Below are positions 3,921 through 37,172 of a stretch of 44,390 nt of DNA, in pieces (the first letter of the stretch is position 1; each line of letters begins with the position of its first letter). The notes beneath the pieces are model-generated. The model had not been told where the DNA came from, made no database searches, and saw nothing but the letters and a program-made list of their open reading frames with translations. This DNA is from Escherichia phage 590B. Location of the stretch: the sequence record MW722821.1. One strand, 5' to 3'. Both the position numbers and the translations under genes were made by a program.

Positions 3921-3952
3921 TGAATAGTACCCTATTATATTGGGGTGTGCAA
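3921..3952 (-). promoter_or_regulatory. sigma70-type promoter (TTGCAC-N17-TACTAT), family A
   Basis: -35 at 3947-3952 and -10 at 3924-3929 read on minus strand; 32-bp element identical to 13403-13434; 28 nt upstream of gene 3693-3896. Confidence 0.6.
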
Positions 3953-4225
3953 ACTATTTATTTACGTATTCCAGTTATTCCTCCGAATTGTAAATGTTGG
4001 AATAAACTATTCGAATAGTTGACTTTTCACTAAAAATATGATAAGCTCCACCTGAGCTTGTGAAGTATGAACAAGCGACCGCGGCGCGGGCAGGTAACGG
4101 AGCGGGACGTAAGTCCTGAGTGTAGTTACGCTGACGCGTTCGGAAGGGCCATACCCTATTGCTTGTGTAAAAAGTAACTGGTTTACTGAGATTACGCCGT
4201 TTCTATGTTTAAATGATAAGGACTA

Positions 4226-4252
4226 GCGCCCCGCTTTATGGCGGGGCTTTAC
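4226..4252 (+). terminator. rho-independent terminator
   Basis: GCCCCGC-TTTATG-GCGGGGC then TTTACTT; 20 nt upstream of i-spanin start. Confidence 0.5.
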
Positions 4253-4271
4253 TTATCGAGAAAGGGGAAAC

Positions 4272-4658
4272 ATGAATCTTAAAGCAACTGTCGTAGCAGG
4301 AGCATGTTTCATCATCCTGGTTTACGCACACGGCATCTACCAGTATCGCAGCGGATGGAACGAAGGCCGGGCTAATCTCGTTTCGCAGCAACAGCAGAAA
4401 GCACAGGCTGAGTTAGCGAAGAAAACACAACGGCAGCAGCAGGATGAATCGAAGGCCGCCGCCGCTGACAACGAAGGCAAGACGAAATCAGAGGTGATTA
4501 CCCGTGAAGTCGTTAAGTACATTAAAACGCCTGGTCGCAGCGTGTGCACTTTTGACCCTGAGCGCGTGCAGCTCAAGTCCCGCGCCGTCGCCAACGCCAA
4601 TTCCATCTCCGGATACGACGATGATGCAGCCGCCGTGCAAGCTGGCGCCACCAAGTAG
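4272..4658 (+). CDS. i-spanin (Rz-like inner-membrane spanin)
   Basis: N-terminal transmembrane helix followed by Gln/Ala/Lys-rich coiled-coil; contains an overlapping +1-frame lipoprotein gene (classic Rz/Rz1 arrangement). Confidence 0.65.
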   Translation: MNLKATVVAGACFIILVYAHGIYQYRSGWNEGRANLVSQQQQKAQAELAKKTQRQQQDESKAAAADNEGKTKSEVITREVVKYIKTPGRSVCTFDPERVQLKSRAVANANSISGYDDDAAAVQAGATK

Positions 4659-4767
4659 TGACGCGGACGAGGATTTAGCTATCGACGTTCAGAACGCCGA
4701 ATGCGTACGGCAACTGAGACTGAAAGTGTTCATGTTGCAGGATTACGTGAGGAATATTCTGGAATAG
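4504..4767 (+). CDS. o-spanin (Rz1-like outer-membrane lipoprotein)
   Basis: GTG start with GAGGTG SD; signal peptide ending in lipobox LTLSAC; proline-rich mature region; +1 frame overlapping the i-spanin 3' half and extending past its stop. Confidence 0.65.
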   Translation: MKSLSTLKRLVAACALLTLSACSSSPAPSPTPIPSPDTTMMQPPCKLAPPSSDADEDLAIDVQNAECVRQLRLKVFMLQDYVRNILE

Positions 4768-4849
4768 TTGCCTTGCATGTTGGAATAATTTATTCTTGAC
4801 ATGTAAATCCGGGTGGCCCGGATTCCAACGTCCAGGGGACATACTGACT

Positions 4850-5551
4850 ATGAATCGTTTTTTACGTTATCCGTTCCAGGAAGAAGCTGGAGCAGAAGAT
4901 AAAGCTGGTGGCGGTGACGCTCCTAAAATGTTCACCGCTGAAGAAGTTCAGGCGCTGATTGAGAAAGAAGTTGCCGGGCTTAAGGCCAATCAGGAAGCAT
5001 TGCTGGCGGAGAAGAAAGAAGCCGCCCGTAAAGCAAAAGAGGCCGAAGAAGAACGGCAGCGTGCGCACCAGGAGGCGTTAAAGGCCGCCGGTAAGATGGA
5101 CGAGTTTGAAAAGACGATTCGTAGCCAGTATGACCCGGTGTTAGCCGAGAAAGATGGCCGCATCTCCAGAATGGCAGAGCGCATCCTCGGCAGCGAACGT
5201 AAAGCGGTGCTAGGCTCTTTCGCGGGTGACTTTATTACCCCGGAAGCAGTGGACATCCTTGCGCCGTTCGTTAAGACTGAGTTCGAAGGTGATGATGTGG
5301 TTACTAAGTTTGTCGGCGCAGACGGTAACGTAATCACGACTGACCCGGAACAGTTCCGCAAATACCTGCGCGAACACAAGGCGTTTTCGCATTTGATCAA
5401 AGCAAATGCAGCTTCCGGCGGCGGGGCTTCCGGTAGCAAAGGCGGCGGGGCCGCACCAGCGTTTAAAGACATGAGTGAAGCAGAGCGTTTAGCCCTGTAT
5501 AAATCGAACCCTGCCGAATTTGAACGGCAACTTAAAGCCCTGAGGAAATAA
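4850..5551 (+). CDS. scaffolding protein
   Basis: Ala/Glu/Lys-rich predicted coiled-coil protein immediately upstream of the major capsid gene; ATG 4850 chosen over the track's upstream alternative start. Confidence 0.55.
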   Translation: MNRFLRYPFQEEAGAEDKAGGGDAPKMFTAEEVQALIEKEVAGLKANQEALLAEKKEAARKAKEAEEERQRAHQEALKAAGKMDEFEKTIRSQYDPVLAEKDGRISRMAERILGSERKAVLGSFAGDFITPEAVDILAPFVKTEFEGDDVVTKFVGADGNVITTDPEQFRKYLREHKAFSHLIKANAASGGGASGSKGGGAAPAFKDMSEAERLALYKSNPAEFERQLKALRK

Positions 5552-5553
5552 TA

Positions 5554-6603
5554 ATGGCAATTACCACTATCGGCGATATCGTAACTGGCAACATCCCGGT
5601 CCTGGCGTCTTATATGACCGAGGACCCGGTAGAAAAAACCGCGTTCTTCCAGTCTGGTATTCTGACCCCGACCCCGTACGCTGCCGAGATTGCCCGCGGC
5701 CCGTCCAACGTCGCTAATATTCCTTTCTGGAAAGCGATTGATACCTCTATCGAGCCGAACTACTCGAACGACGTATACCAGGACATCGCCACCCCGCGTA
5801 ACGTGCAGACCGGCGAGATGATGGCGCGCGTTGCGTACCTGAACGAAGGTTTCGGTCAGGCGGATTTGACCGTTGAACTGACCAGCCAGAACCCGCTGCA
5901 ATCCGTAGCGTCACGTCTGGATAACTTCTGGCAGCGTCAGGCACAACGCCGTCTGATTGCTACCGCGCTCGGGCTGTACAATGACAACGTAGCCGCTACC
6001 GACGCATACCACGAGCAGAATGACATGGTAATCGACGTGTCTGCTACTCTGGGCTTCGATGCGGGCGCGTTCATCGACGCTACCCAGACTATGGGCGATG
6101 CTCTGATGGGCAACGGCGGTGAAGTGCTGGGGGCTATCGCGATGCATAGCTTCGTTTATGCGCAGGCACGTAAGCAGCAGCTTATCGACTTCATCCGTGA
6201 CGCGGACAACAACACCATGTTCGCCACCTACCAGGGCTACCGCGTGATTGTTGACGACAGCATGACCGTAGTCGGCACTGGCCCGACCCGTAAGTTCATC
6301 TCCATCATCTTCGGCAACGGCGCTATCGGTTACGGTGAAGGTTCTCCGTCCAACCCGCTGGAATACGAGCGCGAAGCGTCCCGCGGCAACGGCGGCGGCG
6401 TTGAAACCCTGTGGACCCGTAAGACCTGGTTGCTACATCCGTTTGGTTACAGCTTCACCAGTGCAGTAATCACTGGCAACGGCACCGAGACTACCCCGCG
6501 CTCTGCTTCCTGGCAGGACCTGGCGAACGCCTCCAACTGGAACCGTGTGGTTGACCGCAAGCACGTACCGATTGCCTTCCTGGTAACTGGTGTCGGTGCT
6601 TAA
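5554..6603 (+). CDS. major capsid protein
   Basis: 349-aa ORF after scaffold gene with GAGGAAA SD; size and position typical of an HK97-fold capsid protein; followed by a strong terminator. Confidence 0.65.
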   Translation: MAITTIGDIVTGNIPVLASYMTEDPVEKTAFFQSGILTPTPYAAEIARGPSNVANIPFWKAIDTSIEPNYSNDVYQDIATPRNVQTGEMMARVAYLNEGFGQADLTVELTSQNPLQSVASRLDNFWQRQAQRRLIATALGLYNDNVAATDAYHEQNDMVIDVSATLGFDAGAFIDATQTMGDALMGNGGEVLGAIAMHSFVYAQARKQQLIDFIRDADNNTMFATYQGYRVIVDDSMTVVGTGPTRKFISIIFGNGAIGYGEGSPSNPLEYEREASRGNGGGVETLWTRKTWLLHPFGYSFTSAVITGNGTETTPRSASWQDLANASNWNRVVDRKHVPIAFLVTGVGA

Positions 6604-6617
6604 GGTTAAGCTATAAT

Positions 6618-6645
6618 CGAGAGGGACTTCGGTCCCTCTTTTCAT
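6618..6645 (+). terminator. rho-independent terminator after major capsid gene
   Basis: GAGGGAC-TTCG-GTCCCTC followed by TTTTCATTT. Confidence 0.6.
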
Positions 6646-6662
6646 TTACTAAGAGGTAAATT

Positions 6663-6962
6663 ATGGCTAAGACCGGAAAAGGCTTGCCGCGCAGCCTTCA
6701 GAATGTCGACTTCGGCGACTTTGATATCCCAGTCACGCCTGCTACTACCAGCGTAGTTGGTGGGGTTAAAAAGTCAGCTACTGTAGCTGCTCCCACGGCC
6801 ATTACTGCCGCTGCCGGAGTTCAGGCCGCCGCAGACCCGACTAAGGTAGAGTTTAATGCGCTTGTAGCGGAGTACAACAAACTTCGAACCGATGTTACCG
6901 CGCTGCGCACTACCGTAGCAAATCTGTTAACCGCGCTTAAAAACGCAGGAACTGTAAGCTAA
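6663..6962 (+). CDS. hypothetical head-module protein
   Basis: 99-aa Ala/Thr-rich ORF with AAGAGG SD between capsid gene and an Ig-like protein gene. Confidence 0.45.
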   Translation: MAKTGKGLPRSLQNVDFGDFDIPVTPATTSVVGGVKKSATVAAPTAITAAAGVQAAADPTKVEFNALVAEYNKLRTDVTALRTTVANLLTALKNAGTVS

Positions 6963-6974
6963 AGGAGCTTAAAA

Positions 6975-7328
6975 ATGGTTGATGTAATTAAACGTCGCAT
7001 TACTGGCGTCTCTGACGACTCCCCGGCCGATGGTCAGGTAGAAATCGACATGGCAGATATCTCACCAGCATCTTTTTCTACCCCACTCAATGCCACCACC
7101 ACTGTTAGTACACCCGCCGCATTGACGCTTACCGTTGAGGCAACTGGCGGGATGGCCCCTTATTCCTACCAGTGGTTCAAGGATAACAACGCCATTGCAG
7201 GCGCTACCTCAGCTACGTACACCAAAGCCACCACTGTCGCGTCTGTCGATTCAGGCACGTATAAAGTGGTTGTTCACGATGCATATGGTAATATTATCTC
7301 CAGCAGCACTGTAGCAACTGTGTCTTAA
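6975..7328 (+). CDS. Ig-like domain protein (possible capsid decoration)
   Basis: Motif PYSYQWFKDNNAI...GTYKVVVHD parallels the Ig-like segment of the 3202-3663 product; AAAGGAG SD. Confidence 0.5.
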   Translation: MVDVIKRRITGVSDDSPADGQVEIDMADISPASFSTPLNATTTVSTPAALTLTVEATGGMAPYSYQWFKDNNAIAGATSATYTKATTVASVDSGTYKVVVHDAYGNIISSSTVATVS

Positions 7329-7364
7329 TACAACGGCCCTTCGGGGCCGTAATAAGGAAAGGTC

Positions 7365-7544
7365 ATGGCAGATAATTATGTAATCCGCGAAAAGTACACC
7401 CACGTTGATGTTGTTGACGGTCAGGTGATGCCTGTTCGCGGTGCGGTAGAAGCGGAAGAACTGGTTGCAACACAACCGGACAACGAAGAAGCGCACAACA
7501 ACGGTGGTGGTACTAAGCGACGTCGCCGTAAGTCAGAGGAATAA
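7365..7544 (+). CDS. hypothetical small protein with basic C-terminus
   Basis: 59-aa ORF below the ORF-track cutoff; ATG 7365 preceded by AAGGAAAGG; C-terminus GGGTKRRRRKSEE; stop 4 nt before next gene. Confidence 0.4.
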   Translation: MADNYVIREKYTHVDVVDGQVMPVRGAVEAEELVATQPDNEEAHNNGGGTKRRRRKSEE

Positions 7545-7547
7545 TTT

Positions 7548-8060: not shown

Positions 8061-8062
8061 AA

Positions 8063-9946: not shown

Positions 9947-9948
9947 AT

Positions 9949-11115
9949 ATGGCTACAACTCCTTTTAAGGGCGCGAATACCGCGCAATTCTATGCGGCGG
10001 AAACTACCCCTGGCGTAACACCGACTAACCCGGTATGGTCGCCGTTGCGTAACACTGGCGGTGTTCCTGCCGTAACCCGCGATGCGCTGACTTCCAACGA
10101 ACTAGACGGCAGCCGTGAAACTACATCCATCCGAACCGGTAACAAACAGGTTAGCGGGGAGTACGCCATCGAACTTAGCTCTCGTAGCCAGGATGATTTC
10201 CTTGCGGGAGCGATGACTTCTACGTGGCAAGCTGGGGTAGAGATTACTGGCGCCGAAATTACGGTCGCCCCAGCAGGTAAAACATTCACCCGCGCTGCCG
10301 GTAGCTTCCTTACTGACGGTGTAGAAGTTGGCGACCTGATTGCGTTCACCGACTTAACCGGCGACAACGCAAAACCGTTTATCGTGACCGCGGTTTCCGC
10401 TCTGGTAGTTACGGGCGCAGGTATTCAGCACACGCTGACAGCAGAGACAGTAACCACTGACGCAAAAACTGGCGACAAGCTGGAAACCGGTAACGCGTGT
10501 AAGACGTTCTCCATCCTGACGTGGTTCAAGGGCCAGTGTGATAACCCGGACGCGTACATGCTGACCAAAGGTGTGGAAATCTCTGGCTTTACCGTAGAGC
10601 AGGCGGTTAACGCCATGGTCACCGGCAGCTTCCCGTTCATCGGCCTGAGTCAGGAGATTCTTACCGCGCCGCCGTCTGGCTCTGATTTCTCTCAGGTTAC
10701 GTTCACCGATGAGCCGTTCTCGTCGGTAGATGTGTCGGTGTTCGATGGCTCCACGCCGTTGCGTTGCGATACTCTCACCATCACCAACGACAACGGAGCT
10801 TCCGCGCAGTTCGAACTCGGTAACAGTAGCGTGGCGTTCGTCGAACGTGGACGCGCAGCTAACACATTCTCTATCTCTGGCAAGCTGTACGACATGGCGA
10901 TGATTCAGAAGTTTATCAACGAGCAGCAGGTAGAGATTAACTCTATTCTGGCGGGGGTAAACGGGGCTATGTCTTTCAGTTTGAAACGCGCAGAGCTTAC
11001 AGCAGTAACACCAGAGATTGGCGGACCCGAGTCAATCACTCAGTCCATTGAGGGGCAGGCCACCGGCAACCAGTACCAGTCGTCTATCGTAATTCAACGT
11101 ATCACCTACGCATAA
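9949..11115 (+). CDS. major tail protein
   Basis: 389-aa Thr/Gly/Ser-rich ORF; ATG 9949 with AAGAGG SD 8 nt upstream (track start 9943 is GTG); followed by strong terminator. Confidence 0.55.
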   Translation: MATTPFKGANTAQFYAAETTPGVTPTNPVWSPLRNTGGVPAVTRDALTSNELDGSRETTSIRTGNKQVSGEYAIELSSRSQDDFLAGAMTSTWQAGVEITGAEITVAPAGKTFTRAAGSFLTDGVEVGDLIAFTDLTGDNAKPFIVTAVSALVVTGAGIQHTLTAETVTTDAKTGDKLETGNACKTFSILTWFKGQCDNPDAYMLTKGVEISGFTVEQAVNAMVTGSFPFIGLSQEILTAPPSGSDFSQVTFTDEPFSSVDVSVFDGSTPLRCDTLTITNDNGASAQFELGNSSVAFVERGRAANTFSISGKLYDMAMIQKFINEQQVEINSILAGVNGAMSFSLKRAELTAVTPEIGGPESITQSIEGQATGNQYQSSIVIQRITYA

Positions 11116-11118
11116 AAC

Positions 11119-11147
11119 TAAGGCCCCTTTCGGGGCCTTTTTCTTAC
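11119..11147. terminator. rho-independent terminator (bidirectional) after major tail gene
   Basis: AAGGCCCC-TTTC-GGGGCCTT followed by TTTTTCTT; also closes the minus-strand cassette. Confidence 0.65.
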
Positions 11148-11374
11148 TCATCAATATTGCTTCGGTATTCCCGTAACTTCTCCAGACTTTCAATTGCTTC
11201 CGCTAAGTCGGTTCCGGTGTCCTTGTGTCCGCGCAAGCCCATGCACAATAGCTTCTTCAATGCGTGCTGTAGCGCCGGGTCGCGTATATCGAAGGCGCGG
11301 AGCACATCATAAACGTCTACTGTCATAGTGCTGCCATGAGTGTTTGTCATTGTGCGGTTGTATTTTGAAGTCAT
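11144..11374 (-). CDS. hypothetical protein (last gene of opposite-strand cassette)
   Basis: 76-aa ORF; ATG 11374 with GGGGAG SD; ends at the bidirectional terminator. Confidence 0.5.
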   Translation of the reverse strand: MTSKYNRTMTNTHGSTMTVDVYDVLRAFDIRDPALQHALKKLLCMGLRGHKDTGTDLAEAIESLEKLREYRSNIDE

Positions 11375-11387
11375 AAATCAATCTCCC

Positions 11388-11858
11388 CTACTCATGGTTT
11401 TCATGGAAACCGTATTTACTCTCAGCGGCTTTACGCGCGGCAACCGCTACATCAAAATCATCGTAAAGCCCTAAATGCACTTGTTTGTAGTTAACTTTTA
11501 TAAACGCGCGCCACTTACCCGCGGCTTTGTGGAAACTTACACCTGTAGCCCCGGATTTATTTATCTTTCTCATAGTTTTATTTTTACTGTTCCCTGTATT
11601 GTCGGTGGCGCGTAGATTTTCTATTCTATTGTCTAGCCTGTTATGGTTTATGTGGTCTATTTGAATTTTCCTGTCTAAGTCACATTTATTATAAAGACAC
11701 CATGCTATGCGGTGGACATACACTGTTTTGCCACCCATACCGCAGCACAGATAGCCTCTTACACCAACCGTACCAACCTCAGCACCAGTAGATATCCTGG
11801 TAACCTGCCCAGTATCAGGGCAGTATTTAAATTGTTTTGAAACATCAAGGTACTTCAT
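11388..11858 (-). CDS. HNH homing endonuclease with AP2-like DNA-binding domain
   Basis: HNH core YVHRIAWCLY...IDHINHNRLDNRIENL followed by an AP2-like segment GVSFHKAAGKWRAFIKV...LGLYDDFDVAVAARKAA. Confidence 0.7.
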   Translation of the reverse strand: MKYLDVSKQFKYCPDTGQVTRISTGAEVGTVGVRGYLCCGMGGKTVYVHRIAWCLYNKCDLDRKIQIDHINHNRLDNRIENLRATDNTGNSKNKTMRKINKSGATGVSFHKAAGKWRAFIKVNYKQVHLGLYDDFDVAVAARKAAESKYGFHENHE

Positions 11859-13050: not shown

Positions 13051-13377
13051 CTATTTACTTTCCGCGCCTATCGCCCACCCGGTCATTACCATTTGCAGAC
13101 GGGTGGCTGTCAGTAGGCTATAGAAAGCATCTCCGTTTTTCTCTACCGAACGTATCACTGTGTAGGTTACGGCCTGCGGGGGTAGGCCCGATTTACCAAC
13201 CTCCACGGCGGCCTCACACTCGCGAACTGTAGAGTCCTTGAACGCCTTTACAATAGTAGGGTCGGCTTTCTCGAGCACACCAGAAGTCATAAGAACGGAT
13301 TCACTAAATACCTGTTCACACGGGACCCCAAAAGTAGCAAAAGACATAAACCCCAGAGCTAATACTAGTTTACGCAT
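13051..13377 (-). CDS. hypothetical secreted protein (signal peptide, no lipobox)
   Basis: N-terminal MRKLVLALGFMSFATFG hydrophobic signal-like segment; GAGGAA SD; own promoter at 13403-13434. Confidence 0.55.
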   Translation of the reverse strand: MRKLVLALGFMSFATFGVPCEQVFSESVLMTSGVLEKADPTIVKAFKDSTVRECEAAVEVGKSGLPPQAVTYTVIRSVEKNGDAFYSLLTATRLQMVMTGWAIGAESK

Positions 13378-13402: not shown

Positions 13403-13434
13403 TGAATAGTACCCTATTATATTGGGGTGTGCAA
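13403..13434 (-). promoter_or_regulatory. sigma70-type promoter (TTGCAC-N17-TACTAT), family A
   Basis: Identical 32-bp element to 3921-3952; upstream of gene 13051-13377. Confidence 0.6.
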
Positions 13435-21476: not shown

Positions 21477-23657
21477 ATGTCAAGCGTATGCGGTGACGTT
21501 TTAAGCCTGGCGGATTTACAGACCGCCAAGAAGCACCAGATTTTTGAAGCTGAGGTTATTACTGGTAAATCCGGTGGTGTTGCTACTGGTGCTGATATTG
21601 ATTACGCAACAAATCAGGTTACAGGGCAGACGCAGAAGACACTCCCCGCCGTGTTGCGCGACGCCGGGTTCAGACCTGCGTCTTTCACATTCGAAACAGG
21701 TGGGACTTTGGGCGTTAACGACGCTGACCTGGCGGTGTTGTGGCCAGGGCCATCAGGCGACGGCAACTATTATGCATGGAAGGGTGCTCTGCCAAAAACC
21801 ATCCCGGCATCTTCAACCCCGGCGTCTACGGGCGGAGTAGGCCAGACCGCATGGGTTGCCGTTAGTGAAGCTGCATTGCGCCGTGATTTGGCCCTAAGCA
21901 CTGGCGCAGGGTTAGTTGGGACAACATCCGGCAGGACCGTACAGGCAGAGTTTGACTACCGCAAGACTCAAGCAGCAAAAACAGAGATAAACATACTTGA
22001 CTACCTTCCAGCTAACGTGATCGCAGCTCTAAACGATGTTAACGCGTCAAAAGCACTAGGAAGCGTAAGGACATACATTGAGCAGGCTTTAGCGGCAGCA
22101 ACTAGCGAGAATATCGGTACTGGGGTTACTTTACGTTTCCCGGCTGGGTTCTTTTGGCTTGATTCTACTCTTAACCTTCCAAAAAGGACGCGTATTGTTG
22201 GGGTCTACCCAGAAACATACTTTATGGCTCTCCCTGACTTTACTGGCACTAACGTAATTGCCGGTTCCACAGGACCCGCTATAGTCGCTATTGATAACAC
22301 AGGACAAGACCCGTTTTATATTGAAGGTTTCCAGATAAACGCAGATGGTTCCCAGCCGAATGTGGTTGGGCTGCACATTGGCGGCTGCCGTAATTCCGTC
22401 GTCCGTCGGATATCTGTATCTGGAACCTTCGATGCTGCTGTTGTTATCCACCCTAAAAACGCAACATCTGGAGACGTGGAGAACCTGGAATTAAGCCACG
22501 TATGGACATTAGGCGGTGGGCTTGTGCTCAGGACTAATACAGATATCGACCGTGGAAATTTAACAGGCCTGTCATTCCGGGATTGTATGTTTTTCAGCAC
22601 AATCGACAACAACCCTTCATGGGCGACATCTGGCAACCCTAGTATCAGGTTCTCCTGCCATGTAGACCGACAGATTTTTGCATGTACATTCGACCGTGTA
22701 GGATGGGCGAGTCGCGCAACATACGCCATCTATTCAGAAAGCCTAGCCGGAAATAGTGCATCTGATGTCAAGGGCTTCCGCGATATTCATTTTACAGATT
22801 TCCACGGAGAAGCCCACAATGCCGATGGGTCATTAACAGCGGACTGTACTTTTGCCCTTCTTGCGAATATGCGTAACAGTACATTTACTAATATCCAACG
22901 CTCCGGCGCTGTGACTCGCGGCGGCATTATCATGGATGGGTGCGAATACGTAACATTCAACTCAGTATCATTTGCGGACCCTAATATCACAACAGGAACA
23001 ACGACACCTTGTTGCGTATACCAGAACTCCACCAACAGATTTAATAGATTTATTAACTGTGACTTAACAGATGCAACCGGGAGCATGTTTGATTTAGCCG
23101 GTTGGACCGTGTCATCCAGTGTAATGTATTATTTTAAGGGTCTTTTTTGGGACGATAGTGGGACAAGTACCTGGGAGAGTGAACAAATGTCTTCAAAACC
23201 ATTTGTTCTTTTTAAAAGGTCTGCGCTTAACGCCAATAACGGTTCTGCTTACCCGCAGGAATCAGGCGTAACTATGGCTACTTCTGGTGATAATCTACAG
23301 GTTACCTTTGCACGAGACGTTACCACAAAAACATTCACAATACCAATCACAACTACAAACGCGGTTTTCAACAATCACGACCGCGTTTATGTTCTTTTCC
23401 GTCATCAATTTACCAGTTATGGGACAAATACTGTCGTAAAAATAGGACTAGGAACCTCATATGTGACTATATCACCACAGACCGGTATCGATTATTTTGC
23501 AGCCATCAGTCTTGCCAGAAGCCAGGCAACTAGTTTTAATATCCAAGTTACCTATAGCGGCGCATCTGCAGACTGCGGCATATTAATCAGAGATTTAGTA
23601 ATTTCTGACAGGATGCCGTGGGTGCCAAACTTCACCAAATCCTTACTTTGCGATTAA
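21477..23657 (+). CDS. tailspike / receptor-binding protein (putative depolymerase)
   Basis: 726-aa ORF with AAGAGGA SD; last gene of the structural arm, followed by terminator; Gly/Thr/Asn-rich repetitive C-terminal body; enzymatic specificity not determinable here. Confidence 0.55.
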   Translation: MSSVCGDVLSLADLQTAKKHQIFEAEVITGKSGGVATGADIDYATNQVTGQTQKTLPAVLRDAGFRPASFTFETGGTLGVNDADLAVLWPGPSGDGNYYAWKGALPKTIPASSTPASTGGVGQTAWVAVSEAALRRDLALSTGAGLVGTTSGRTVQAEFDYRKTQAAKTEINILDYLPANVIAALNDVNASKALGSVRTYIEQALAAATSENIGTGVTLRFPAGFFWLDSTLNLPKRTRIVGVYPETYFMALPDFTGTNVIAGSTGPAIVAIDNTGQDPFYIEGFQINADGSQPNVVGLHIGGCRNSVVRRISVSGTFDAAVVIHPKNATSGDVENLELSHVWTLGGGLVLRTNTDIDRGNLTGLSFRDCMFFSTIDNNPSWATSGNPSIRFSCHVDRQIFACTFDRVGWASRATYAIYSESLAGNSASDVKGFRDIHFTDFHGEAHNADGSLTADCTFALLANMRNSTFTNIQRSGAVTRGGIIMDGCEYVTFNSVSFADPNITTGTTTPCCVYQNSTNRFNRFINCDLTDATGSMFDLAGWTVSSSVMYYFKGLFWDDSGTSTWESEQMSSKPFVLFKRSALNANNGSAYPQESGVTMATSGDNLQVTFARDVTTKTFTIPITTTNAVFNNHDRVYVLFRHQFTSYGTNTVVKIGLGTSYVTISPQTGIDYFAAISLARSQATSFNIQVTYSGASADCGILIRDLVISDRMPWVPNFTKSLLCD

Positions 23658-23661
23658 AACT

Positions 23662-23686
23662 AAGGCCCCAAACGGGGCCTTTTCTC
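23662..23686. terminator. convergent terminator between the two genome arms
   Basis: AGGCCCC-AAAC-GGGGCCT then TTTTCTC; sits between the tailspike stop and the minus-strand arm. Confidence 0.6.
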
Positions 23687-23823
23687 TACTCTTCTGATAA
23701 CTTCTCCAGCACAAACGCCAGTTGCGCATTAGCGGCGTCTCTTTGCTGCCGTAGGCGTAGAACCTCCTCTTCGAGTTCCTTGATACGTTTTTGCAATGCT
23801 GGAATCGGGGCTATGATGTTCAT
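23686..23823 (-). CDS. hypothetical small coiled-coil protein
   Basis: 45-aa ORF below track cutoff; its ATG overlaps the helicase stop (ATGA); ends at the convergent terminator. Confidence 0.35.
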   Translation of the reverse strand: MNIIAPIPALQKRIKELEEEVLRLRQQRDAANAQLAFVLEKLSEE

Positions 23824-26219: not shown

Positions 26220-26538
26220 TTCTAAATTCCTTATATTGTTGGGGTATGTGCTTACTATAATAGTCTGCTATTAGGGTGTCAATCTGTTTTATCGAACCAA
26301 CGACAAAAACATTTGCGCCACGTTTACGTATACGCTCGTGTTCCCGTAGCTGGTGCGGGTCTGGCTTAGTGTTTTCGTCTTTCTTCACCTCGACGAACCA
26401 GACGATGCCGCCGGGTAGAATTACCAGCAGGTCGGGGGCGCCGGAACGTCCTTCGTAGGAAAGTTTACGAACGAGGCCACCAATGGCCTCGAATCGGTCT
26501 TTTGCGTATTTCTGTATTTTGCCCTCAGGCGTACTCAT
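26203..26538 (-). CDS. VRR-NUC domain nuclease
   Basis: PD-(D/E)XK-type core GAPDLLVILPGGIVWFVEVKKDEN; ATG 26538 with GAGGGGTG SD (track start 26574 is an alternative codon). Confidence 0.65.
   Translation of the reverse strand: MSTPEGKIQKYAKDRFEAIGGLVRKLSYEGRSGAPDLLVILPGGIVWFVEVKKDENTKPDPHQLREHERIRKRGANVFVVGSIKQIDTLIADYYSKHIPQQYKEFRNETRI
26254..26282 (-). promoter_or_regulatory. sigma70-type promoter (TTGACA-N17-TATAGT), family B
   Basis: -35 26277-26282, -10 26254-26259 (minus strand); lies in the 3' end of the VRR-NUC gene, upstream of ORF 26028-26219. Confidence 0.5.
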
Positions 26539-29213: not shown

Positions 29214-29240
29214 AGTAAAAAGGCCCAATGAAGGGCCTTA
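29214..29240 (-). terminator. rho-independent terminator (minus strand)
   Basis: GGGCCT/AGGCCC hairpin with TTTTTAC on the minus strand, after SSB-like gene. Confidence 0.55.
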
Positions 29241-29258
29241 GTTAAACAGATTCAGATA

Positions 29259-29888
29259 TTAACCACGGCGACGACGTTCGCGGCGCGGTGCTTCATCTTC
29301 TTCGTCGTCTTCCAGGTCATCGACGCTTGCAGCTACTTTAGAACCACCGAACGCTTTACCTTCGCCTACGTATTTAATCGCCAGCAGGTTAACGCCGAGG
29401 ACTTTATATTTCTGGCTGAACCAGATTTCTACGCTTACGTTAGCAACGCAGCCGCTGTAAACCTGTTCACCTTCAATCTGTTCACCGTCTACATTGAAGT
29501 CCTGCTCTACCTGAGTCTCGCCTTTTTTAGAGGTTACAATCAGCGGTTGTTTCTGTGCCTTCGCTTTGAAGTAGAAGCCTTCCGGGAAGTCTTCAAACGG
29601 ATTGTCGCGCTCGGCAATGTCTTTAATCGCGCATTTATCCATGTGCTTACCTTCACCGTAGTTGGACTTCATCCATTTCTCGGCAGCGGCTGCGCCTAAC
29701 GCTTCTTCAACTACAGCGTAAACGGTGTCGTAGAGTGCATCGATTTGAGCATGGTCAGACGGCAGGATGATAGTCGCGCTGTACTGGCCTTTAGTGATTG
29801 AGCCATCATCGTTTTCACGGTCTTTTTCGCGTTCGAATACGTTAACCCAGGCAGTGTTTACTTTACGCAGATTTAATTTCAGTCCCAT
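29259..29888 (-). CDS. single-stranded DNA-binding protein-like (putative)
   Basis: 209-aa ORF with acidic C-terminal tail DDLEDDEEDEAP typical of phage SSBs; own promoter at 29947-29975 and terminator at 29214-29240. Confidence 0.5.
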   Translation of the reverse strand: MGLKLNLRKVNTAWVNVFEREKDRENDDGSITKGQYSATIILPSDHAQIDALYDTVYAVVEEALGAAAAEKWMKSNYGEGKHMDKCAIKDIAERDNPFEDFPEGFYFKAKAQKQPLIVTSKKGETQVEQDFNVDGEQIEGEQVYSGCVANVSVEIWFSQKYKVLGVNLLAIKYVGEGKAFGGSKVAASVDDLEDDEEDEAPRRERRRRG

Positions 29889-29946
29889 TTGATTTCTCGC
29901 TTTTCAGTTTCAGTTTACTCCGGGATCTGCCCGGCCAGTGATTAGA

Positions 29947-29975
29947 ACTATAATAGCTAACTATTCATGTGTCAA
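29947..29975 (-). promoter_or_regulatory. sigma70-type promoter (TTGACA-N17-TATAGT), family B
   Basis: -35 29970-29975, -10 29947-29952; upstream of SSB-like gene. Confidence 0.55.
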
Positions 29976-31671: not shown

Positions 31672-31714
31672 ATTACGACCCTCTGTTAAAGCGGCCCGGA
31701 GGCCGCCAGATAAA

Positions 31715-32215: not shown

Positions 32216-32246
32216 TTGTTTCTCTCCTCTCGTTTGGTATGGGCTA

Positions 32247-32275
32247 ACTATAATAGCGAACTATTCACATGTCAA
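32247..32275 (-). promoter_or_regulatory. sigma70-type promoter (TTGACA-N17-TATAGT), family B
   Basis: -35 32270-32275, -10 32247-32252; 21 of 23 spacer/-10 positions shared with the 29947 promoter; upstream of acidic-protein gene. Confidence 0.55.
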
Positions 32276-32299
32276 TGGGCTTTTCTAAAATAATTAATA

Positions 32300-32308
32300 T
32301 GGTACTAT
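32300..32308 (+). promoter_or_regulatory. extended -10 element (TGgTACTAT) for the Cro-like gene
   Basis: TG at 32300-32301 and TACTAT at 32303-32308, 31 nt upstream of ATG 32340; no good -35. Confidence 0.4.
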
Positions 32309-32339
32309 TCACATATCAACTGACTAAGGAGTAATTGAC

Positions 32340-32555
32340 ATGCAACCATCTGAACTAGGCATCCGTGTAGAACAACGCCGCAAAGAACTCGGCATCTCCC
32401 AGCGCCGTTTGGCGGCCCTGACCGGCGTTTCCCAGGGCGCGATTAACCAACTGGCACTTGGAGTAACTCAGGACGTCCGCCCGGCAACGCTGTTCAAACT
32501 GGCGGAAGTTCTGGAAGTAGACGCCAAGTGGCTGGCGTTAGGTGAAGGGGCTTAA
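32340..32555 (+). CDS. HTH XRE-family (Cro/CI-like) transcriptional regulator
   Basis: 71 aa; ELGISQRRLAALTGVSQGAINQL is a canonical XRE helix-turn-helix; TAAGGAG SD; lone plus-strand gene in the minus arm; terminator overlaps stop. Confidence 0.7.
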   Translation: MQPSELGIRVEQRRKELGISQRRLAALTGVSQGAINQLALGVTQDVRPATLFKLAEVLEVDAKWLALGEGA

Positions 32556-32570
32556 AGCCCCTTTCTTTTT
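32545..32570 (+). terminator. rho-independent terminator overlapping Cro-like stop codon
   Basis: AAGGGGC-TTAAA-GCCCCTT followed by TCTTTTT. Confidence 0.6.
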
Positions 32571-32572
32571 AC

Positions 32573-34795
32573 CTATTCCAAATCCTCCTCTGTCACCACC
32601 AGCATCTCATTTGGTTCGTATAGTGTCTTCGGCCTTAATCTATCCCCTATTCTTTCGGGTATACGATATGTTCTAGGTACTACTTCGCCGTTAGCATCGC
32701 AACCAAGCATTAGTTCTCCATCTTTCAACATTTTATCAAGATGGGTGTTAGTCACAGAGAAGTCACCGGAACGAGCCACTATCTGCTGCTGAGTAAAACC
32801 GCGACCTGTGTCATCTGACTGTTGCAGGTCTTCCAGTGCCGAAAGTATTGACTCCTTCCTTACTTCATCCCTGCCGCGTTTAACTTCTTCCTTTACTTTT
32901 TGCTTACCTTCTTTCGTCAACCCTTCTTCCCGCTCTTTCTCCTCGTCAGTTTTGAACGGCTCGAAACCCCACGGCATCAACACAAGCGCCTTGTGTGGTT
33001 CAGGAAGGTCCAGGTTTACGATTGTGCCGTATTCTTCTGTGCCCCCCAGGAACTCAACCGCACGGTACTCTTTCGGCGGCGGAGCTTCGCGGAACTGCAC
33101 AGACTCCAGCACCATGCCAACCGTTTTCTGTTGAGGACCGTGCTTAAATTTCGAGTGGTATACGTTTATTTGACGGTCGGTTGCACGTTCGATTGTCAGT
33201 TCCACGTCAACACCCGCATACAGCGCCCCACTGCCGCGTGCTTTCTTTCCACCCTTCGGCGTATGGTGGACAACGCCTACTGCGGCTTTAGTTGCATCGC
33301 GTACTTCTTTCAGAATGGCGATAACTTTACCCATGCCGATTGCTGTTGATGAACTGTTCTCGTCGAACTTATCAATCGTCAGTGCCAGGGTCTGGTTAAG
33401 GGTGTCGAACGCAACCATGCCAATTGGCTCGTCGCCAGCAGTTTCGCGCATTAACTTAATCAGGCTTTTAAGTTTGCCGACTTCGCCCATATCGATGACG
33501 TGTACATAATCTTTACCTTCCCCGCCATATTTAGCCGCTAGTGCATCAATACGGGTGCGTGTAGCTGCGCCACCCTCACCATCAATATAGAAATGGTGGC
33601 AACGCTGGGTATCCGCCCCCGCAAACCTGTACCCGGCGGCGCTGAGGTACATCATCCCCAGCGTATAGAACGATTTGTACGTGCCAGATTCCCCGACGAT
33701 ATCCCAGATACAATCCGACGGCATGTACCCCTCAACGACGAAATCAGCCTTTACCGGCTCCGGTAACTCGTCCTCCTCTGAGTCCTCGTCGTCTTCCAGG
33801 TCGTCGAGGCTGCAAGTTACTGGGTCCTCGTTCTCTGTGCGGTGTAGTTCTTCAATCTCTTCTTCCGGTAAATCAGGCAGAGCCGCACGAATGCTGTTAA
33901 TGCTGATAGGTTGCTTATCTATGTTAAGCTCGTCGGGTAGGCCACACATACGCAGGGCCAAATGCTGCCTACGGTTAAGCTCGGTGCAAGCGCCGTTGTT
34001 TGTATGCTGGCAGACAAAGCGCACTTCTTTACCGTCGAGCATTATGCTGGTGGAGCCCTTGCCTGTATGCAGATGTTCGTTAGGGCATGGCACTTCGTAC
34101 CCGCGCCCGGAAGATAAAGCGTCAAGGCCAAGCTCGGCTTCGCAGAAGTGTGCTATATCCGCGTTAAGCCCATGCTCATCAGCGGCAAGTGTTTTAGCCT
34201 CACGCTTACGCAACCCCATCTCTTCGGCTTTCTTGATGTACCGCTCAGCACGGATAACACGCCCTTCTGTAACCGTTATCTTCGACTCTTTATGCGGCAG
34301 GTAGATAAGGCGGTTGCCGTCTTCTGTGCAGTGGTCGCGCAACGCTTCGTCTATTTCTAACTCTGCACAAATAGCACGTTGCACCATCCACGCGTCGTTA
34401 GAGTTAAACGGCGTGCGAGCTGGAACCAGAACGCGGAAAGCGTAATCTCCATTTTTACATGCGTGCTGATGCGATGCCGTTGTGTGCAGAATATTGAAGA
34501 ACGGCGCGTTCTTGAATTTGCGTGTCAGGTCGCGGTACTGAGTACGGTTGAGATGGTCGAAATCGAACTTAACCACACTGTCTTCCAGGATAGCGTTTTT
34601 ACGGCGACCACCAACAGGCGCAATAGCTTTCTGTTTAATCTTGGCAGCGTCGTACTCTTCCTTAGTCCATGACGGGTCCACGGATAAACGCTTCGATGTA
34701 TCGCAGACATACTCGACAAACTGCTCCAGCGGCATTTCACGCGCTACAGGGTTTTTATCGAATGTGTTACGCAGCGTTGCAAAAACAATATTCAT
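32573..34795 (-). CDS. DNA primase/helicase (PrimPol-like N-terminal domain plus RecA/AAA-like ATPase domain)
   Basis: 740 aa; N-terminal primase-polymerase-like region, Cys/His cluster CPNEHLHTGKG...CQHTNNGAC, Walker A-like GESGTYKS, Lys/Glu-rich C-terminal extension. Confidence 0.65.
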   Translation of the reverse strand: MNIVFATLRNTFDKNPVAREMPLEQFVEYVCDTSKRLSVDPSWTKEEYDAAKIKQKAIAPVGGRRKNAILEDSVVKFDFDHLNRTQYRDLTRKFKNAPFFNILHTTASHQHACKNGDYAFRVLVPARTPFNSNDAWMVQRAICAELEIDEALRDHCTEDGNRLIYLPHKESKITVTEGRVIRAERYIKKAEEMGLRKREAKTLAADEHGLNADIAHFCEAELGLDALSSGRGYEVPCPNEHLHTGKGSTSIMLDGKEVRFVCQHTNNGACTELNRRQHLALRMCGLPDELNIDKQPISINSIRAALPDLPEEEIEELHRTENEDPVTCSLDDLEDDEDSEEDELPEPVKADFVVEGYMPSDCIWDIVGESGTYKSFYTLGMMYLSAAGYRFAGADTQRCHHFYIDGEGGAATRTRIDALAAKYGGEGKDYVHVIDMGEVGKLKSLIKLMRETAGDEPIGMVAFDTLNQTLALTIDKFDENSSSTAIGMGKVIAILKEVRDATKAAVGVVHHTPKGGKKARGSGALYAGVDVELTIERATDRQINVYHSKFKHGPQQKTVGMVLESVQFREAPPPKEYRAVEFLGGTEEYGTIVNLDLPEPHKALVLMPWGFEPFKTDEEKEREEGLTKEGKQKVKEEVKRGRDEVRKESILSALEDLQQSDDTGRGFTQQQIVARSGDFSVTNTHLDKMLKDGELMLGCDANGEVVPRTYRIPERIGDRLRPKTLYEPNEMLVVTEEDLE

Positions 34796-34920
34796 TTCTT
34801 TTTCTCCGCACGTTCTAAGGCTTCCTGCATACGGCGCATTGCGCGGTTCATCTTTACCGGCGCGAAGAAATCGGCGCCGTGTTTCTGTCGGCGCAGCTGT
34901 GGAACTATTAACTTCGTCAT
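34792..34920 (-). CDS. possible 42-aa basic protein
   Basis: Unlisted ORF with AAGGA SD; stop overlaps primase ATG (ATGA). Confidence 0.3.
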   Translation of the reverse strand: MTKLIVPQLRRQKHGADFFAPVKMNRAMRRMQEALERAEKKK

Positions 34921-34989
34921 TGTATAATCCTTGTGCTTACTTTGATGATTTGTGCTTTGGCCCCGACGTTCTTGCGTTGGGGTTTCTTT

Positions 34990-35280
34990 TTACCGTTTAG
35001 CCAACCCTTCCAGCAAATTTTTATACTCTTCAAAATATTCCTCGACCAAATCATCGCCGAAATAGAAGTCGATATACTCGAGATTATCTCTTACGTTAAG
35101 CGATGCCGACATGGTGCTTAGTTGGCGTAAGCTAATTAGCTTCATTTCTGTTTCTACGCAGAAAGGCCGGTAGGTATCAAGATGGCAAGAGATATTGAAG
35201 CATAAAGCGAACTCTCCGGCCACGGAGTGAACCATATACACTTCGTTTTCTGCTTTATTGTGGAAAATTACGCCTTTCAT
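34990..35280 (-). CDS. hypothetical protein
   Basis: 96-aa ORF, AAGGAG SD, ATGA overlap with upstream regulator gene. Confidence 0.5.
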   Translation of the reverse strand: MKGVIFHNKAENEVYMVHSVAGEFALCFNISCHLDTYRPFCVETEMKLISLRQLSTMSASLNVRDNLEYIDFYFGDDLVEEYFEEYKNLLEGLAKR

Positions 35281-35459
35281 TTCACGTTCTCCTTAATCCA
35301 TGCTTCGACTTTATTACGGTCAAATGTTCCCGGTAAACGGCGGCCCATAACCTTAATACAGCAGTCAGGGAATTTGCCGCTGCGCAACCAGTTATTAATG
35401 GTCTGACGTGTCACCCCGATACGCTCGGCTACCTCATTCTGTGTCATGTAATGTTGCAT
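35277..35459 (-). CDS. AlpA/Xis-like helix-turn-helix DNA-binding protein
   Basis: 60 aa from ATG 35459; MTQNEVAERIGVTRQTINNWLRSGKFP matches the AlpA-type HTH pattern; first gene of the minus-strand early operon. Confidence 0.55.
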   Translation of the reverse strand: MQHYMTQNEVAERIGVTRQTINNWLRSGKFPDCCIKVMGRRLPGTFDRNKVEAWIKENVK

Positions 35460-35490
35460 TTTTATATCCCCTGTTTGTTTAGTGAAACCG

Positions 35491-35519
35491 AGTATAGGAT
35501 AGCGGGAATGTAAAAGCAA
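35491..35519 (-). promoter_or_regulatory. sigma70-type promoter (TTGCTT-N17-TATACT) for minus-strand early operon
   Basis: -35 35514-35519, -10 35491-35496 on minus strand; about 30 nt upstream of ATG 35459. Confidence 0.45.
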
Positions 35520-35556
35520 CCAATCCCTGCAATATTTAATCTTTACAAAAAAGTTA

Positions 35557-35586
35557 TTGAAAGTTCTTGACACATGTTTGTATAAT
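35557..35586 (+). promoter_or_regulatory. sigma70-type promoter (TTGAAA-N18-TATAAT), divergent from 35491-35519
   Basis: Consensus -10 TATAAT at 35581-35586; would start a plus-strand transcript across a 350-bp ORF-free leader. Confidence 0.45.
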
Positions 35587-35785
35587 GGTTTTGGGACTTG
35601 TATATATTACGGAGTTGACGAACCCTCCCCGAGGGATTCGTCAACCCCTCCCAGACAGCTGAGATGCTTGCCTTGTGGTTTAAGGATAAGTGTATCTAAA
35701 TCTCATTTAAAGAAGTAACCCGCTGAAATATCTACTGTTTCTTAATGTGCCGTAGATTCGCAACCGTAAAAATGTAACGATTATT

Positions 35786-35810
35786 GGGCAGGCTTAAGGC
35801 CTGCCCTTTA
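35786..35810 (+). terminator. hairpin terminator / attenuator in early leader
   Basis: GGGCAGGC-TTAA-GCCTGCCC followed by TTTA (short U-tract). Confidence 0.4.
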
Positions 35811-35878
35811 GTTACCAAGTAATAAGAATAAAGGCACAACCCTACCTGAAGAATCACAACGGCAACGTAACTAATATC

Positions 35879-35907
35879 TTGCACACCCCAACATAATAGG
35901 ATACTAT
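35879..35907 (+). promoter_or_regulatory. sigma70-type promoter (TTGCAC-N17-TACTAT), family A
   Basis: -35 35879-35884, 17-bp spacer, -10 35902-35907; 30/32 identical to the 3921 element; about 30 nt upstream of first early gene. Confidence 0.6.
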
Positions 35908-35935
35908 TCACTTATCGAAACGAGACGGAGGAGTG

Positions 35936-36133
35936 ATGGTTATGTTTAAGAAGGGTCAGTTAGTAAAAACTATATACGGTAGCTTAGGTATTATTGAAAA
36001 GAAATCGACAGTGTATCGAAGTTCTTATGTCGTTAGCTTACTAAGGGAGCACGGGTTAAGTTCCGCGGCGTATTACCAAGAGTATGAAATGAAGCTCATC
36101 GGCAACAATTTTAAATTCAAAGGGGCGAAGTGA
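35936..36133 (+). CDS. hypothetical early protein
   Basis: First ORF after promoter 35879-35907; GGAGGA SD at 35927-35932; start could be 35933 (GTG), 35936 or 35942 (ATG). Confidence 0.45.
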   Translation: MVMFKKGQLVKTIYGSLGIIEKKSTVYRSSYVVSLLREHGLSSAAYYQEYEMKLIGNNFKFKGAK

Positions 36134-36426
36134 TGGAAGAATTACCTCAATGCGAACGCCAGTTCATTAGCGGGTTTATTCCCGTAAATAATTTCAACAT
36201 TTCTGAATTGCTGGAACTAAGAGAAAATGGCGCTTTGTGGGTGTGTAACGCCAGAGACGTAACAAAGGCCAGGGTATGGAACTTTAGCATACTGCGTCGC
36301 CCTAATAAGTCAGGTGCAGGTGTGGTAACGATGGACTTGCTACAGCGTAAGGGCAAATTGTTTATGAGAACGGCATCGAATCATGATGCTCGTGCCGACG
36401 ACTCTGAGGGAGGTTGCCGTCAATGA
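36133..36426 (+). CDS. hypothetical early protein
   Basis: 97-aa ORF, start overlapping upstream stop. Confidence 0.45.
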   Translation: MEELPQCERQFISGFIPVNNFNISELLELRENGALWVCNARDVTKARVWNFSILRRPNKSGAGVVTMDLLQRKGKLFMRTASNHDARADDSEGGCRQ

Positions 36427-36620
36427 GAATTCGAATAACTGATGTCGATTATGTGCTGCCGCCAGGGTATGGCGACCATTCTTTGCGCCACTTTGGAGTT
36501 TCGGTAGGCGATGAGTTTGAGGTTACGTCCAGTAATGATTACGGATGTACAGTCGAACATTGCGGAGAGGAACTGTACGTGCGTAGACGTGAATGTGAGG
36601 TTCTGGGGGCTAAGTTATGA
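36423..36620 (+). CDS. hypothetical early protein
   Basis: 65-aa ORF; ATGA overlap; GAGGGAGG upstream. Confidence 0.45.
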   Translation: MRIRITDVDYVLPPGYGDHSLRHFGVSVGDEFEVTSSNDYGCTVEHCGEELYVRRRECEVLGAKL

Positions 36621-36772
36621 GAGAAGCATTCGAACGGTGGGCCGTCGTCGAGGGTCTGCCGGTTAACAAGGGTTCGAAGAAAGAGTACCTGAACGTTAAG
36701 ACGCGTCTCGCATGGCGGGCGTGGAAAGCTGGTGTGCAATCCTTGATTGAAAGAGGTGTGAGGTATGGGTGA
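36617..36772 (+). CDS. hypothetical small protein
   Basis: 51-aa unlisted ORF; ATGA overlap upstream and 8-nt overlap downstream. Confidence 0.4.
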   Translation: MREAFERWAVVEGLPVNKGSKKEYLNVKTRLAWRAWKAGVQSLIERGVRYG

Positions 36773-36965
36773 GTGGATTAAGTGTAGTGAGATGCTGCCG
36801 GGTAATGGGTGTACGGATAAAGAGTTCCTGGTGTATGAAACGTTAAATAACGCAGTTCAACACGATTATTACATCGTTCCTGATGACGGGAGAAAGCCTT
36901 TCTGGAATCACTACGATAAGTACGTGACGCACTGGATGCCGTTACCCGAGCCGCCAGAAGTGTGA
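36765..36965 (+). CDS. DUF551-like protein
   Basis: C-terminal HWMPLPEPP resembles the W-x-P-x-P-x-PP signature of DUF551; AAGAGGTG SD; followed by terminator 36997-37035. Confidence 0.5.
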   Translation: MGEWIKCSEMLPGNGCTDKEFLVYETLNNAVQHDYYIVPDDGRKPFWNHYDKYVTHWMPLPEPPEV

Positions 36966-36996
36966 TGTTCAATAGTTTGGGATTTTACTGAGTGAC

Positions 36997-37035
36997 TTAC
37001 GCTGCTACACAGCAGCGTATCATTTTTCTCATTTT
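36997..37035 (+). terminator. rho-independent terminator after first early operon
   Basis: TACGCTGCT-ACACA-GCAGCGTA followed by TCATTTTTCTCATTTTT. Confidence 0.6.
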
Positions 37036-37112
37036 TGTTCTATTTCACCAAACGCAACAATCGAAGCGACTATTGCAGGAGATGCAACAATACAAACACC
37101 AATAAAATTTAC

Positions 37113-37141
37113 TTGCACACTAAGATAGAATAGGCTACTAT
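37113..37141 (+). promoter_or_regulatory. sigma70-type promoter (TTGCAC-N17-TACTAT), family A
   Basis: -35 37113-37118, -10 37136-37141; 32 nt upstream of ORF 37173. Confidence 0.55.
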
Positions 37142-37172
37142 TCATTTACACAAACTAGAGGAGAGACAGAGG

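Follow-up and report, generated by a model that had tools for sequence, protein, structure and literature searches.

The closest described counterparts of the system considered here are the Cro and cI repressors of phage 434, together with c2 and Cro of P22 (18-bp operators). The operators of 434 (OR and OL) comprise 14 bp, two 5-bp halves around four central bases (5-N4-5), and the outermost adenine is read by the glutamine at the start of the recognition helix of 434. A comparable arrangement is proposed for Escherichia phage 590B (sequence record MW722821.1, analysed as one stretch of 44,390 nucleotides, called the window below), in which promoter-like elements repeated around the genome share the two-fold symmetric core AATAG-N4-CTATT. 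The chance appears slightly better than even that these elements are sigma70 promoters into which operators have been incorporated. The repressor bound there would be encoded by the phage and is probably a Cro-like protein of 71 amino acids (aa), which would permit coordinated shut-off of the promoters.

Two marks of the Cro/cI type, a small HTH_3 protein (71 aa, as 434 Cro) and symmetric 14-18 bp operators overlapping core promoter elements, are present in phage 590B, with 5-bp half-sites (7 bp in the extended form) around four variable bases and with the regulator gene adjoining its own putative operators. The likeness does not extend to a lambdoid immunity region: the HTH_3 gene is single, no divergent cI-type repressor with a cleavage domain has been found, and a Pfam scan of the 67 open reading frames (ORFs; best 25 of 36 families, including every one with E < 2e-7) has given no cI partner, no integrase or peptidase S24 family and no other lysogeny gene, the phage group being described as lytic. 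Unlike the two tripartite operator clusters of 434, with their half-site ACAAG, the sites of phage 590B are spread over about ten promoters genome-wide and have the half-site AATAG, at which binding is predicted.

Other described systems share single traits with this one. Protein p4 of phi29 is likewise a small phage DNA-binding protein with sites in host-polymerase promoters of a lytic phage and a part in early shut-off, as is proposed here, but it is not an HTH_3 protein, its long inverted repeats lie mostly upstream of the promoters, it works with p6, and it also activates a late promoter, whereas no sign of activation is seen in phage 590B. The stoperators of the mycobacteriophage L5 type are similarly many copies of one repressor site around the genome, outside any immunity region; they differ in being asymmetric 13-bp sites inside the transcription units of a temperate phage and oriented with transcription, whereas the present sites are symmetric and lie in promoters. 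In the PeSL of T4-type phages (PMC2839356, PMC4122927), near-identical promoters and terminators also frame small variable ORFs, and relatives differ between the cassette bounds. A PeSL is, however, a single composite motif of stem-loop and early promoter without an operator, placed between ORFs of hyperplastic regions, while in the moron cassette of phage 590B promoter and terminator are separate and stand at the two ends of the ORF, the slots are few, and recombination at the cassette is suggested by junction positions alone.

On promoters and operators of these genera, the searched literature has yielded two PHIRE mentions only. The genome paper on the related phage fBC-Eco01 gives the motif 'tgAATAGTa-ccTATTat-T' and calls its copies promoters of a phage-encoded RNA polymerase (PMC9825357), and that on SGP-C calls the motif 'TAATAGTACCCTATTATGTT' a conserved regulatory element (PMC8790156). 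In neither paper is it remarked that the motif is symmetric, that it lies within sigma70 promoters or that a protein may bind it, and the site seems never to have been described as an operator.

The palindrome and its place in the predicted promoters

Two promoter families had been described from the letters of this DNA, and on re-reading the sequence the coordinates of all their sites hold. The 32-mer TGAATAGTACCCTATTATATTGGGGTGTGCAA of family A is identical at 3921-3952 and 13403-13434 and has a 30/32 copy on the opposite strand at 35879-35910 (shuffles with any match: 0); these three sites share with 37113-37145 (TTGCAC-N17-TACTAT-TCA) one pattern, which is read toward the downstream ORFs. 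Family B has the form TTGACA-N17-TATAGT and occurs three times, always on the minus strand (26282-26254, 29975-29947 and 32275-32247). The original prediction placed the word GAATAGT in every site and took it to point to a shared regulator site or to recently copied promoter cassettes. The word is missing from 26254-26282, which carries TAATAGC / ACTATTA, and its genome-wide enrichment is weak to marginal (10 copies against 4.41 +/- 2.08 expected, a number reached by 2 of 100 shuffles). Since this count was only marginal, the palindrome has been used as the test instead, and a shared regulator site has remained the best explanation, in the form of a two-fold symmetric operator of 14-18 bp and not of the GAATAGT word.

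The core common to all sites, AATAG-N4-CTATT, occurs with at most one mismatch at 12 places, against 1.18 +/- 1.0 expected; none of 100 shuffles reaches 12, the shuffle maximum being 4. Seven copies are perfect (3923, 13405, 26259, 29952, 32252, 35895 and 37129) and five have one mismatch (2120, 4014, 32296, 34622 and 40505). Among all perfect 5-mer dyads with gaps of 0-9, it ranks first in the window and in phage Jersey, with terminator stems lower. Ten of the 12 palindromes stand at promoter positions, over the -10 in family A, in the spacer in family B and over the -35 in a third class, and three of the sites (32296-32309, 4014-4027 and 40505-40518) had been missed by the first reading. The flanks are usually TG on one side and AT on the other (TGAATAG-N4-CTATTAT), the extended form also ending in CTATTCA, and families A and B hold this 18-mer in opposite orientations, so that the two families can be regarded as one site mounted two ways. 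The one-mismatch copies at 34622, inside the helicase-primase gene, and at 2120, shared with the close relative L007 only, have been treated as chance occurrences or weak sites. As separate signals, the leader motif CGAAACGAGA and the -35-flank motif TTGCACACCCCAA are not enriched in the window.

The view that the elements resemble sigma70 promoters is supported; they lie directly 5' of co-oriented ORFs (within ~60 bp for each perfect site) and often just past a terminator. Family B has 17-bp spacers and hexamers agreeing with the consensus (TTGACA and TATAAT, 16-18 bp apart) at 11/12 positions each, and it supplies three of the four top promoter-like matches in 20-40 kb (all four 11/12). Counted from the first base of the -35, the palindrome begins after 16 nt in family A, in which its right half makes the -10 (TA+CTAT), after 10 nt in family B, in which it abuts TATAGT, and after 13 nt in the Jersey ortholog of the 13434 promoter, a third register with TATTAT as the -10. 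In the third class (4014 and 40505), the -35 TTGACT of a TTGACT-N17 arrangement lies within a one-mismatch palindrome, and the mismatch is identical at the orthologous site in 5/5 relatives at 4014 (L003-L007) and in four Kagunaviruses at 40505; at the place orthologous to the latter promoter, a promoter has been annotated in Jersey. Because the registers differ (16, 13 or 10 nt, or over the -35) and both orientations occur, sigma70 contacts cannot explain the palindrome, and because every site lies 5' of the predicted start point, the signal probably acts in DNA and not in RNA.

The placement inside canonical -35/-10 frames also bears on the published view (PMC9825357) that an RNA polymerase encoded by the phage uses the motif as its promoter, to which we assign practically no likelihood. 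PHIRE, on which the statement was based, only reports repeated words, and gene content refutes it: the Pfam scan of the 67 ORFs has no RNA polymerase family among its best 25 of 36, and all ORFs of >400 aa are otherwise assigned, namely to portal, tail, tailspike, DNA polymerase, helicase or exonuclease.

Enrichment of the same degree is seen in five Kagunaviruses, of which one is a partial locus, and in two Jerseyviruses (4-8 perfect sites per phage, ~0.05 expected), and in the Serratia phage Otaku the site is kept at two orthologous promoters. In a seven-phage alignment of the promoter of the single-stranded DNA (ssDNA)-binding gene, TTGACA, both half-sites and the -10 stand out, while N4 and the flank on the left are variable and the sequence 5' of the -35 is unalignable; pooled family B promoters (18 distinct sequences) show the same conserved and variable parts, and across three genera the hexamers and the two half-sites alone are fixed. 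The conserved left half-site sits in the spacer, none of whose bases are read by sigma70, and the most economical account is that a further, symmetric protein binds the DNA there. The 32-mer itself has been found in 350 places in 159 phage records (70 at an identity of at least 99%), the names being those of Escherichia, Salmonella, Kagunavirus, Raoultella, Shigella and Klebsiella phages.

One may ask whether any regulator is needed, as promoter cassettes spread by copying or gene conversion might be bidirectional promoters, their symmetry arising incidentally from a hexamer of the -10 type on either strand (TACTAT one way and TATTAT, TATATT or TATAAT the other). The cassettes have clearly been copied (identical 32-mers, common 5' untranslated regions (5'UTRs) and terminators, junctions at the cassette edge), the right half-site overlaps or abuts the -10 in each class, and the plus strand has a family-B-like promoter at 13403. 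At most sites, however, a credible opposite-strand -35 is lacking, and the left half AATAG is invariant across three genera although sigma70 does not read it. Under copying alone the N4 would be equally conserved, whereas N4 and flank vary, and both halves have been kept through register shifts of 3 and 6 bp. We consequently regard an origin of the symmetry without a regulator as quite unlikely.

Candidate binding proteins

The candidate to which the preferred reading points, the 71-aa protein of the HTH_3 (XRE/Cro) type, has 434 Cro (71 aa, E = 8.5e-6) and the DNA-binding domain of the 434 repressor (E = 1.1e-5) as its best solved relatives, and in related phages it has been annotated as Cro, as a repressor or as a transcriptional regulator. 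The first residue of the 434 recognition helix, a glutamine, has a glutamine as its counterpart in this protein, and Kagunavirus homologs, down to 77% identity, do not differ in the helix-turn-helix segment. Its gene is the sole rightward gene amid the leftward replication block, and two of the putative operators lie in the intergenic region 5' of it: that of the divergent family B promoter and a weaker one, which covers the -10 of the gene's own putative promoter. The same layout is found in Jersey, in which the own-promoter site is still weaker and the orthologous promoter reads TTGCGT-N17-TACTAT. The assignment of the operators to the HTH_3 protein is circumstantial; a large protein search with it has returned Kagunavirus-type sequences alone (77-97% identity) and hence no independent pairing of gene and site. 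In more distant relatives, covariation of regulator and site is no more than suggestive, Otaku keeping the site and the Guernseyvirinae phage vB_STM-ZS (Salmonella) having a variant: vB_STM-ZS is without AATAG-N4-CTATT and carries ATTAG-N4-GTATT, free of mismatches, in three promoter positions (3134, 7371 and 33131), and its HTH_3 gene lies within the helicase operon and is not opposed to it.

The operator could be genuine and nonetheless have another binder, which we consider unlikely; candidates would be the HTH_17 (excisionase/MerR-like) protein, a small early protein that has escaped recognition, and a host factor common to E. coli, Salmonella and Serratia. The HTH_17 protein is the only other DNA-binding regulator in the Pfam scan, which among its best 25 of 36 families has one HTH_3 and one HTH_17 only. 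The single RNA-seq study of a Kagunavirus (K1B4, PMC12645636) classes four genes as early, one of them an HTH gene located after the helicase gene, and puts a 'specific DNA binding' gene in the middle class. The two sites mentioned above flank the HTH_3 gene and not the HTH_17 gene, however, and the symmetric 5-N4-5 layout and the 71-aa 434-Cro-like protein match each other. Activation by a MerR-type protein that binds the spacer has been rejected, as such binders require over-long spacers of 19-20 bp whereas families A and B have 17 bp. For a host factor one may adduce that the motif occurs in phages of three host genera, but a search of 5,426 complete E. coli genomes for the 32-mer has given no match, and a host binder has been rejected on that ground. 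To our knowledge, no enterobacterial factor has the site AATAG-N4-CTATT; the TrpR operator ACTAG-N4-CTAGT, which we take to be the nearest, differs at a presumably critical C in all perfect sites.

Several points weigh against the assignment to a Cro-like repressor. The recognition helix reads SQGAINQ in Kagunavirus and SQSLITH in Jerseyvirus while the core half-site is identical, a difference between genera that would suit another binder, and vB_STM-ZS retains an HTH_3 homolog, yet its promoter-embedded ATTAG-N4-GTATT is non-symmetric. The K1B4 data are not 5'-resolved and are too coarse for its genes to be mapped surely onto HTH_3 and HTH_17. The promoter strength of family A is unproven, because its hexamers (TTGCAC-N17-TACTAT) agree with the consensus at 7/12 positions in this window, against 10/12 for the Jersey ortholog TTGACA-N17-TACTAT. 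The perfect 16-bp palindrome AACTATTCGAATAGTT at 4004-4019, conserved among Kagunaviruses and in one Jerseyvirus, has its half-sites turned outward (CTATT-CG-AATAG) and is mismatched to the operator geometry; it extends into the left half of the 4014 operator. Finally, no operator, binding, reporter, footprint or 5'-end work for this phage group has been found in the searched literature.

Table 1. Promoters with putative operators, candidate regulators and the moron cassette in the phage 590B window
Feature	Position	Strand	Details
Moron cassette	3662..3966	minus	Terminator 3667-3687, 67-aa ORF 3693-3896, 5'UTR, promoter
Family A promoter + putative operator	3921..3952	minus	TTGCAC 3952-3947, N17, TACTAT; AATAG-GGTA-CTATT 3923-3936 over -10; 5' of moron ORF 3693-3896
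Third-class promoter	4014..4047	plus	AATAG-TTGA-CTTTT 4014-4027 over -35 TTGACT 4019-4024; extended -10 TGaTAAGCT 4039-4047
Family A promoter + putative operator	13403..13434	minus	Same 32-mer as at 3921; heads leftward unit 13377 to 11144
Family B promoter	26254..26282	minus	AATAG-CAGA-CTATT in spacer; 5' of 26219 to 23820 (methylase + SNF2 helicase genes)
Family B promoter	29947..29975	minus	AATAG-TTAG-CTATT; 5' of ssDNA-binding gene + DNA polymerase operon
Family B promoter	32247..32275	minus	AATAG-TTCG-CTATT; 5' of 32215 to 29961 (exonuclease operon)
Putative autoregulated promoter of regulator gene	32290..32319	plus	One-mismatch AATAT-GGTA-CTATT 32296-32309 over extended -10 TGgTACTAT 32300-32308
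HTH_3 (XRE/Cro-type) protein, 71 aa, proposed operator-binding repressor	32340..32555	plus	PF01381, E = 3.9e-13
HTH_17 (excisionase/MerR-like) protein, alternative candidate binder	35277..35573	minus	Pfam scan
Family A promoter	35879..35910	plus	AATAG-GATA-CTATT; heads rightward small-ORF operon from 35933
Family A promoter	37113..37145	plus	GAATAG-GCTA-CTATTC, most symmetric site; after terminator 36998-37019, before ORFs from 37173
Third-class promoter	40505..40538	plus	ACTAG-TTGA-CTATT over -35 TTGACT 40510-40515; N17; -10 TATATT 40533-40538; T-run terminator 5'; ORFs from 40575

Accessory cassettes, candidate RNAs and genome context

The copying of promoter cassettes, which had been offered as the other explanation of the repeats, is borne out by comparison of the relatives' cassettes. 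The moron cassette 3662-3966 is absent from one Kagunavirus and two Jerseyviruses (L007, L006 and L002), in which the flanks are joined within ~40 bp, and in three other Kagunaviruses (L003-L005) a different ORF is found between the same promoter and terminator; judged from these sequences, 3693-3896 is a moron in the strict sense, assembled from the common promoter and terminator as standard parts. That each 32-mer drives an opposite-strand moron fits the promoter at 3952 and not that at 13434, which heads a four-ORF unit ending at the two-way terminator 11120-11139 and including an exonuclease gene conserved in 6/6 relatives compared. The promoter-proximal gene of this unit (13051-13377) has been replaced in 3/6 relatives, with the break exactly at the cassette (junction 13402), and its HNH-like ORF 11388-11858 is also variable. 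The opposite, plus strand of the 13434 promoter carries the family-B-like GTTACA (13395)-N17-TATATT (13423) facing the tail genes, so that one operator at 13403-13434 may serve both directions. It is reasonable to infer that the morons are co-expressed with early genes, as had been predicted. Terminator and promoter follow each other in this order at 36998-37145 and ~40470-40538, whereas in the moron the two stand at opposite ends of the ORF. Operator conservation, the cassette swaps and the spread of the 32-mer, taken together, indicate both that the operator has been under selection and that entire cassettes have been copied.

Near-identical two-way terminators, TAAAACTAAGGCCCC-N4-GGGGCCTTTT, stand at module borders (3664-3691, 11113-11152, 23655-23694 and 29216-29243) and are common to the moron cassettes of the relatives; the family can also be written AAGGCCCC-N4-GGGGCCTT, in four places. 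Past the family B promoter at 26282, the minus-strand leader AAGCACATACCCCAACAATATAAGGA (26225-26253) has the look of a degenerate family A promoter (that at 35879 reads TTGCACACCCCAACATAATAGGA), which suggests past stacking of cassettes.

Three places in the window may give rise to structured RNA. From the promoter 4019-4047 to the terminator 4228-4247, a candidate structured small RNA of ~180 nt (4019-4247, plus strand) has been noted, the unit being 95.5% identical to Jerseyvirus L006 5725-5966, where the flanking genes are ~85% identical, and missing from Jersey. L004 and L005 have a paralog (79%) 5' of their early promoter. Folded to a consensus, the unit forms a long stem with two compensatory pairs and an apical hairpin, GGAC-GUAA-GUCC against GUGCC-AUUA-GGCAC in the paralog; the minimum-free-energy z-score is -2.2, and there is no Rfam match. 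The ssDNA-binding gene (29259-29888) has in its 5'UTR a leader hairpin, GGCCGGGCAG..CCCGGAG (~29905-29935, minus strand), which is conserved from Kagunavirus to vB_STM-ZS, with the stem sequence swapped and the pairing kept in Otaku, and which may serve the ssDNA-binding protein as a translational operator. At 35557-35806 (plus strand), a near-consensus TTGAAA-N18-TATAAT (11/12) without operator is followed by a hairpin with a stem of 13-14 bp at ~35600-35650 (TTGACGAATCCCTC..GAGGGTTCGTCAA) and by a strong terminator (35786-35806), with no convincing ORF; because the same place holds the paralog of the 4019 unit in L004 and L005, this may be another small RNA.

Phage 590B is, as far as can be read from its genome, a lytic E. 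coli siphophage of the genus Kagunavirus (subfamily Guernseyvirinae). The window is 93-97% identical to Bas70-76, NTEC3 and KMB35 over most of its length, the Salmonella Jerseyviruses being more distant matches. Bases 1-300 recur identically at 43847-44146, and the window is therefore a complete genome of ~43.8 kb (about 43,846 bp) with redundant ends. The minus-strand ORFs at 43788-44257 overlap the frame of the terminase small subunit and are probably not genes. Within the early small-ORF region, an 87% direct repeat of 103 nt (37960-38062 and 38229-38331) suggests the tandem duplication of an early gene.

Proposed shut-off and what it would mean

In the mechanism that we infer, as regards promoter activity, the identity of the binder and its repressive effect alike, host RNA polymerase with sigma70 would transcribe from each element, and each element would bear the two-fold symmetric operator AATAG-N4-CTATT, at which a dimeric phage protein would bind and block the polymerase. 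The most likely binder, the 434-Cro-like HTH_3 protein, would be made from its own promoter with the weaker operator, and as it accumulates, it would turn down the early operons (35879 and 37113), the three replication operons (26282, 29975 and 32275) and the moron and exonuclease units (3952 and 13434), with a weaker response expected from the imperfect sites over the -35 at 4014 and 40505. Promoter, 5'UTR and common terminator would serve as standard parts, between which accessory ORFs are exchanged among relatives.

It is conceivable, although we consider it very unlikely, that one repressor with operators on essentially all early, replication and accessory promoters could silence the genome and so give an unintegrated immune carrier state. 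Such a state would agree with the disputed finding that the Jerseyvirus SGP-C gives immune 'lysogens' (PMC8790156).

Repressor-operator biology of this type is ordinary in kind. Kagunaviruses and Jerseyviruses have been put forward widely as agents of therapy and biocontrol against E. coli and Salmonella, and a defined operator with a named candidate repressor would provide a directly testable model of their early-to-late switch. The reading as repressor-controlled sigma70 promoters also corrects the published statement on promoters of a phage polymerase. Furthermore, it would explain why accessory genes have the same promoter and terminator, and it bears on which newly acquired genes get expressed in these phages, and when.

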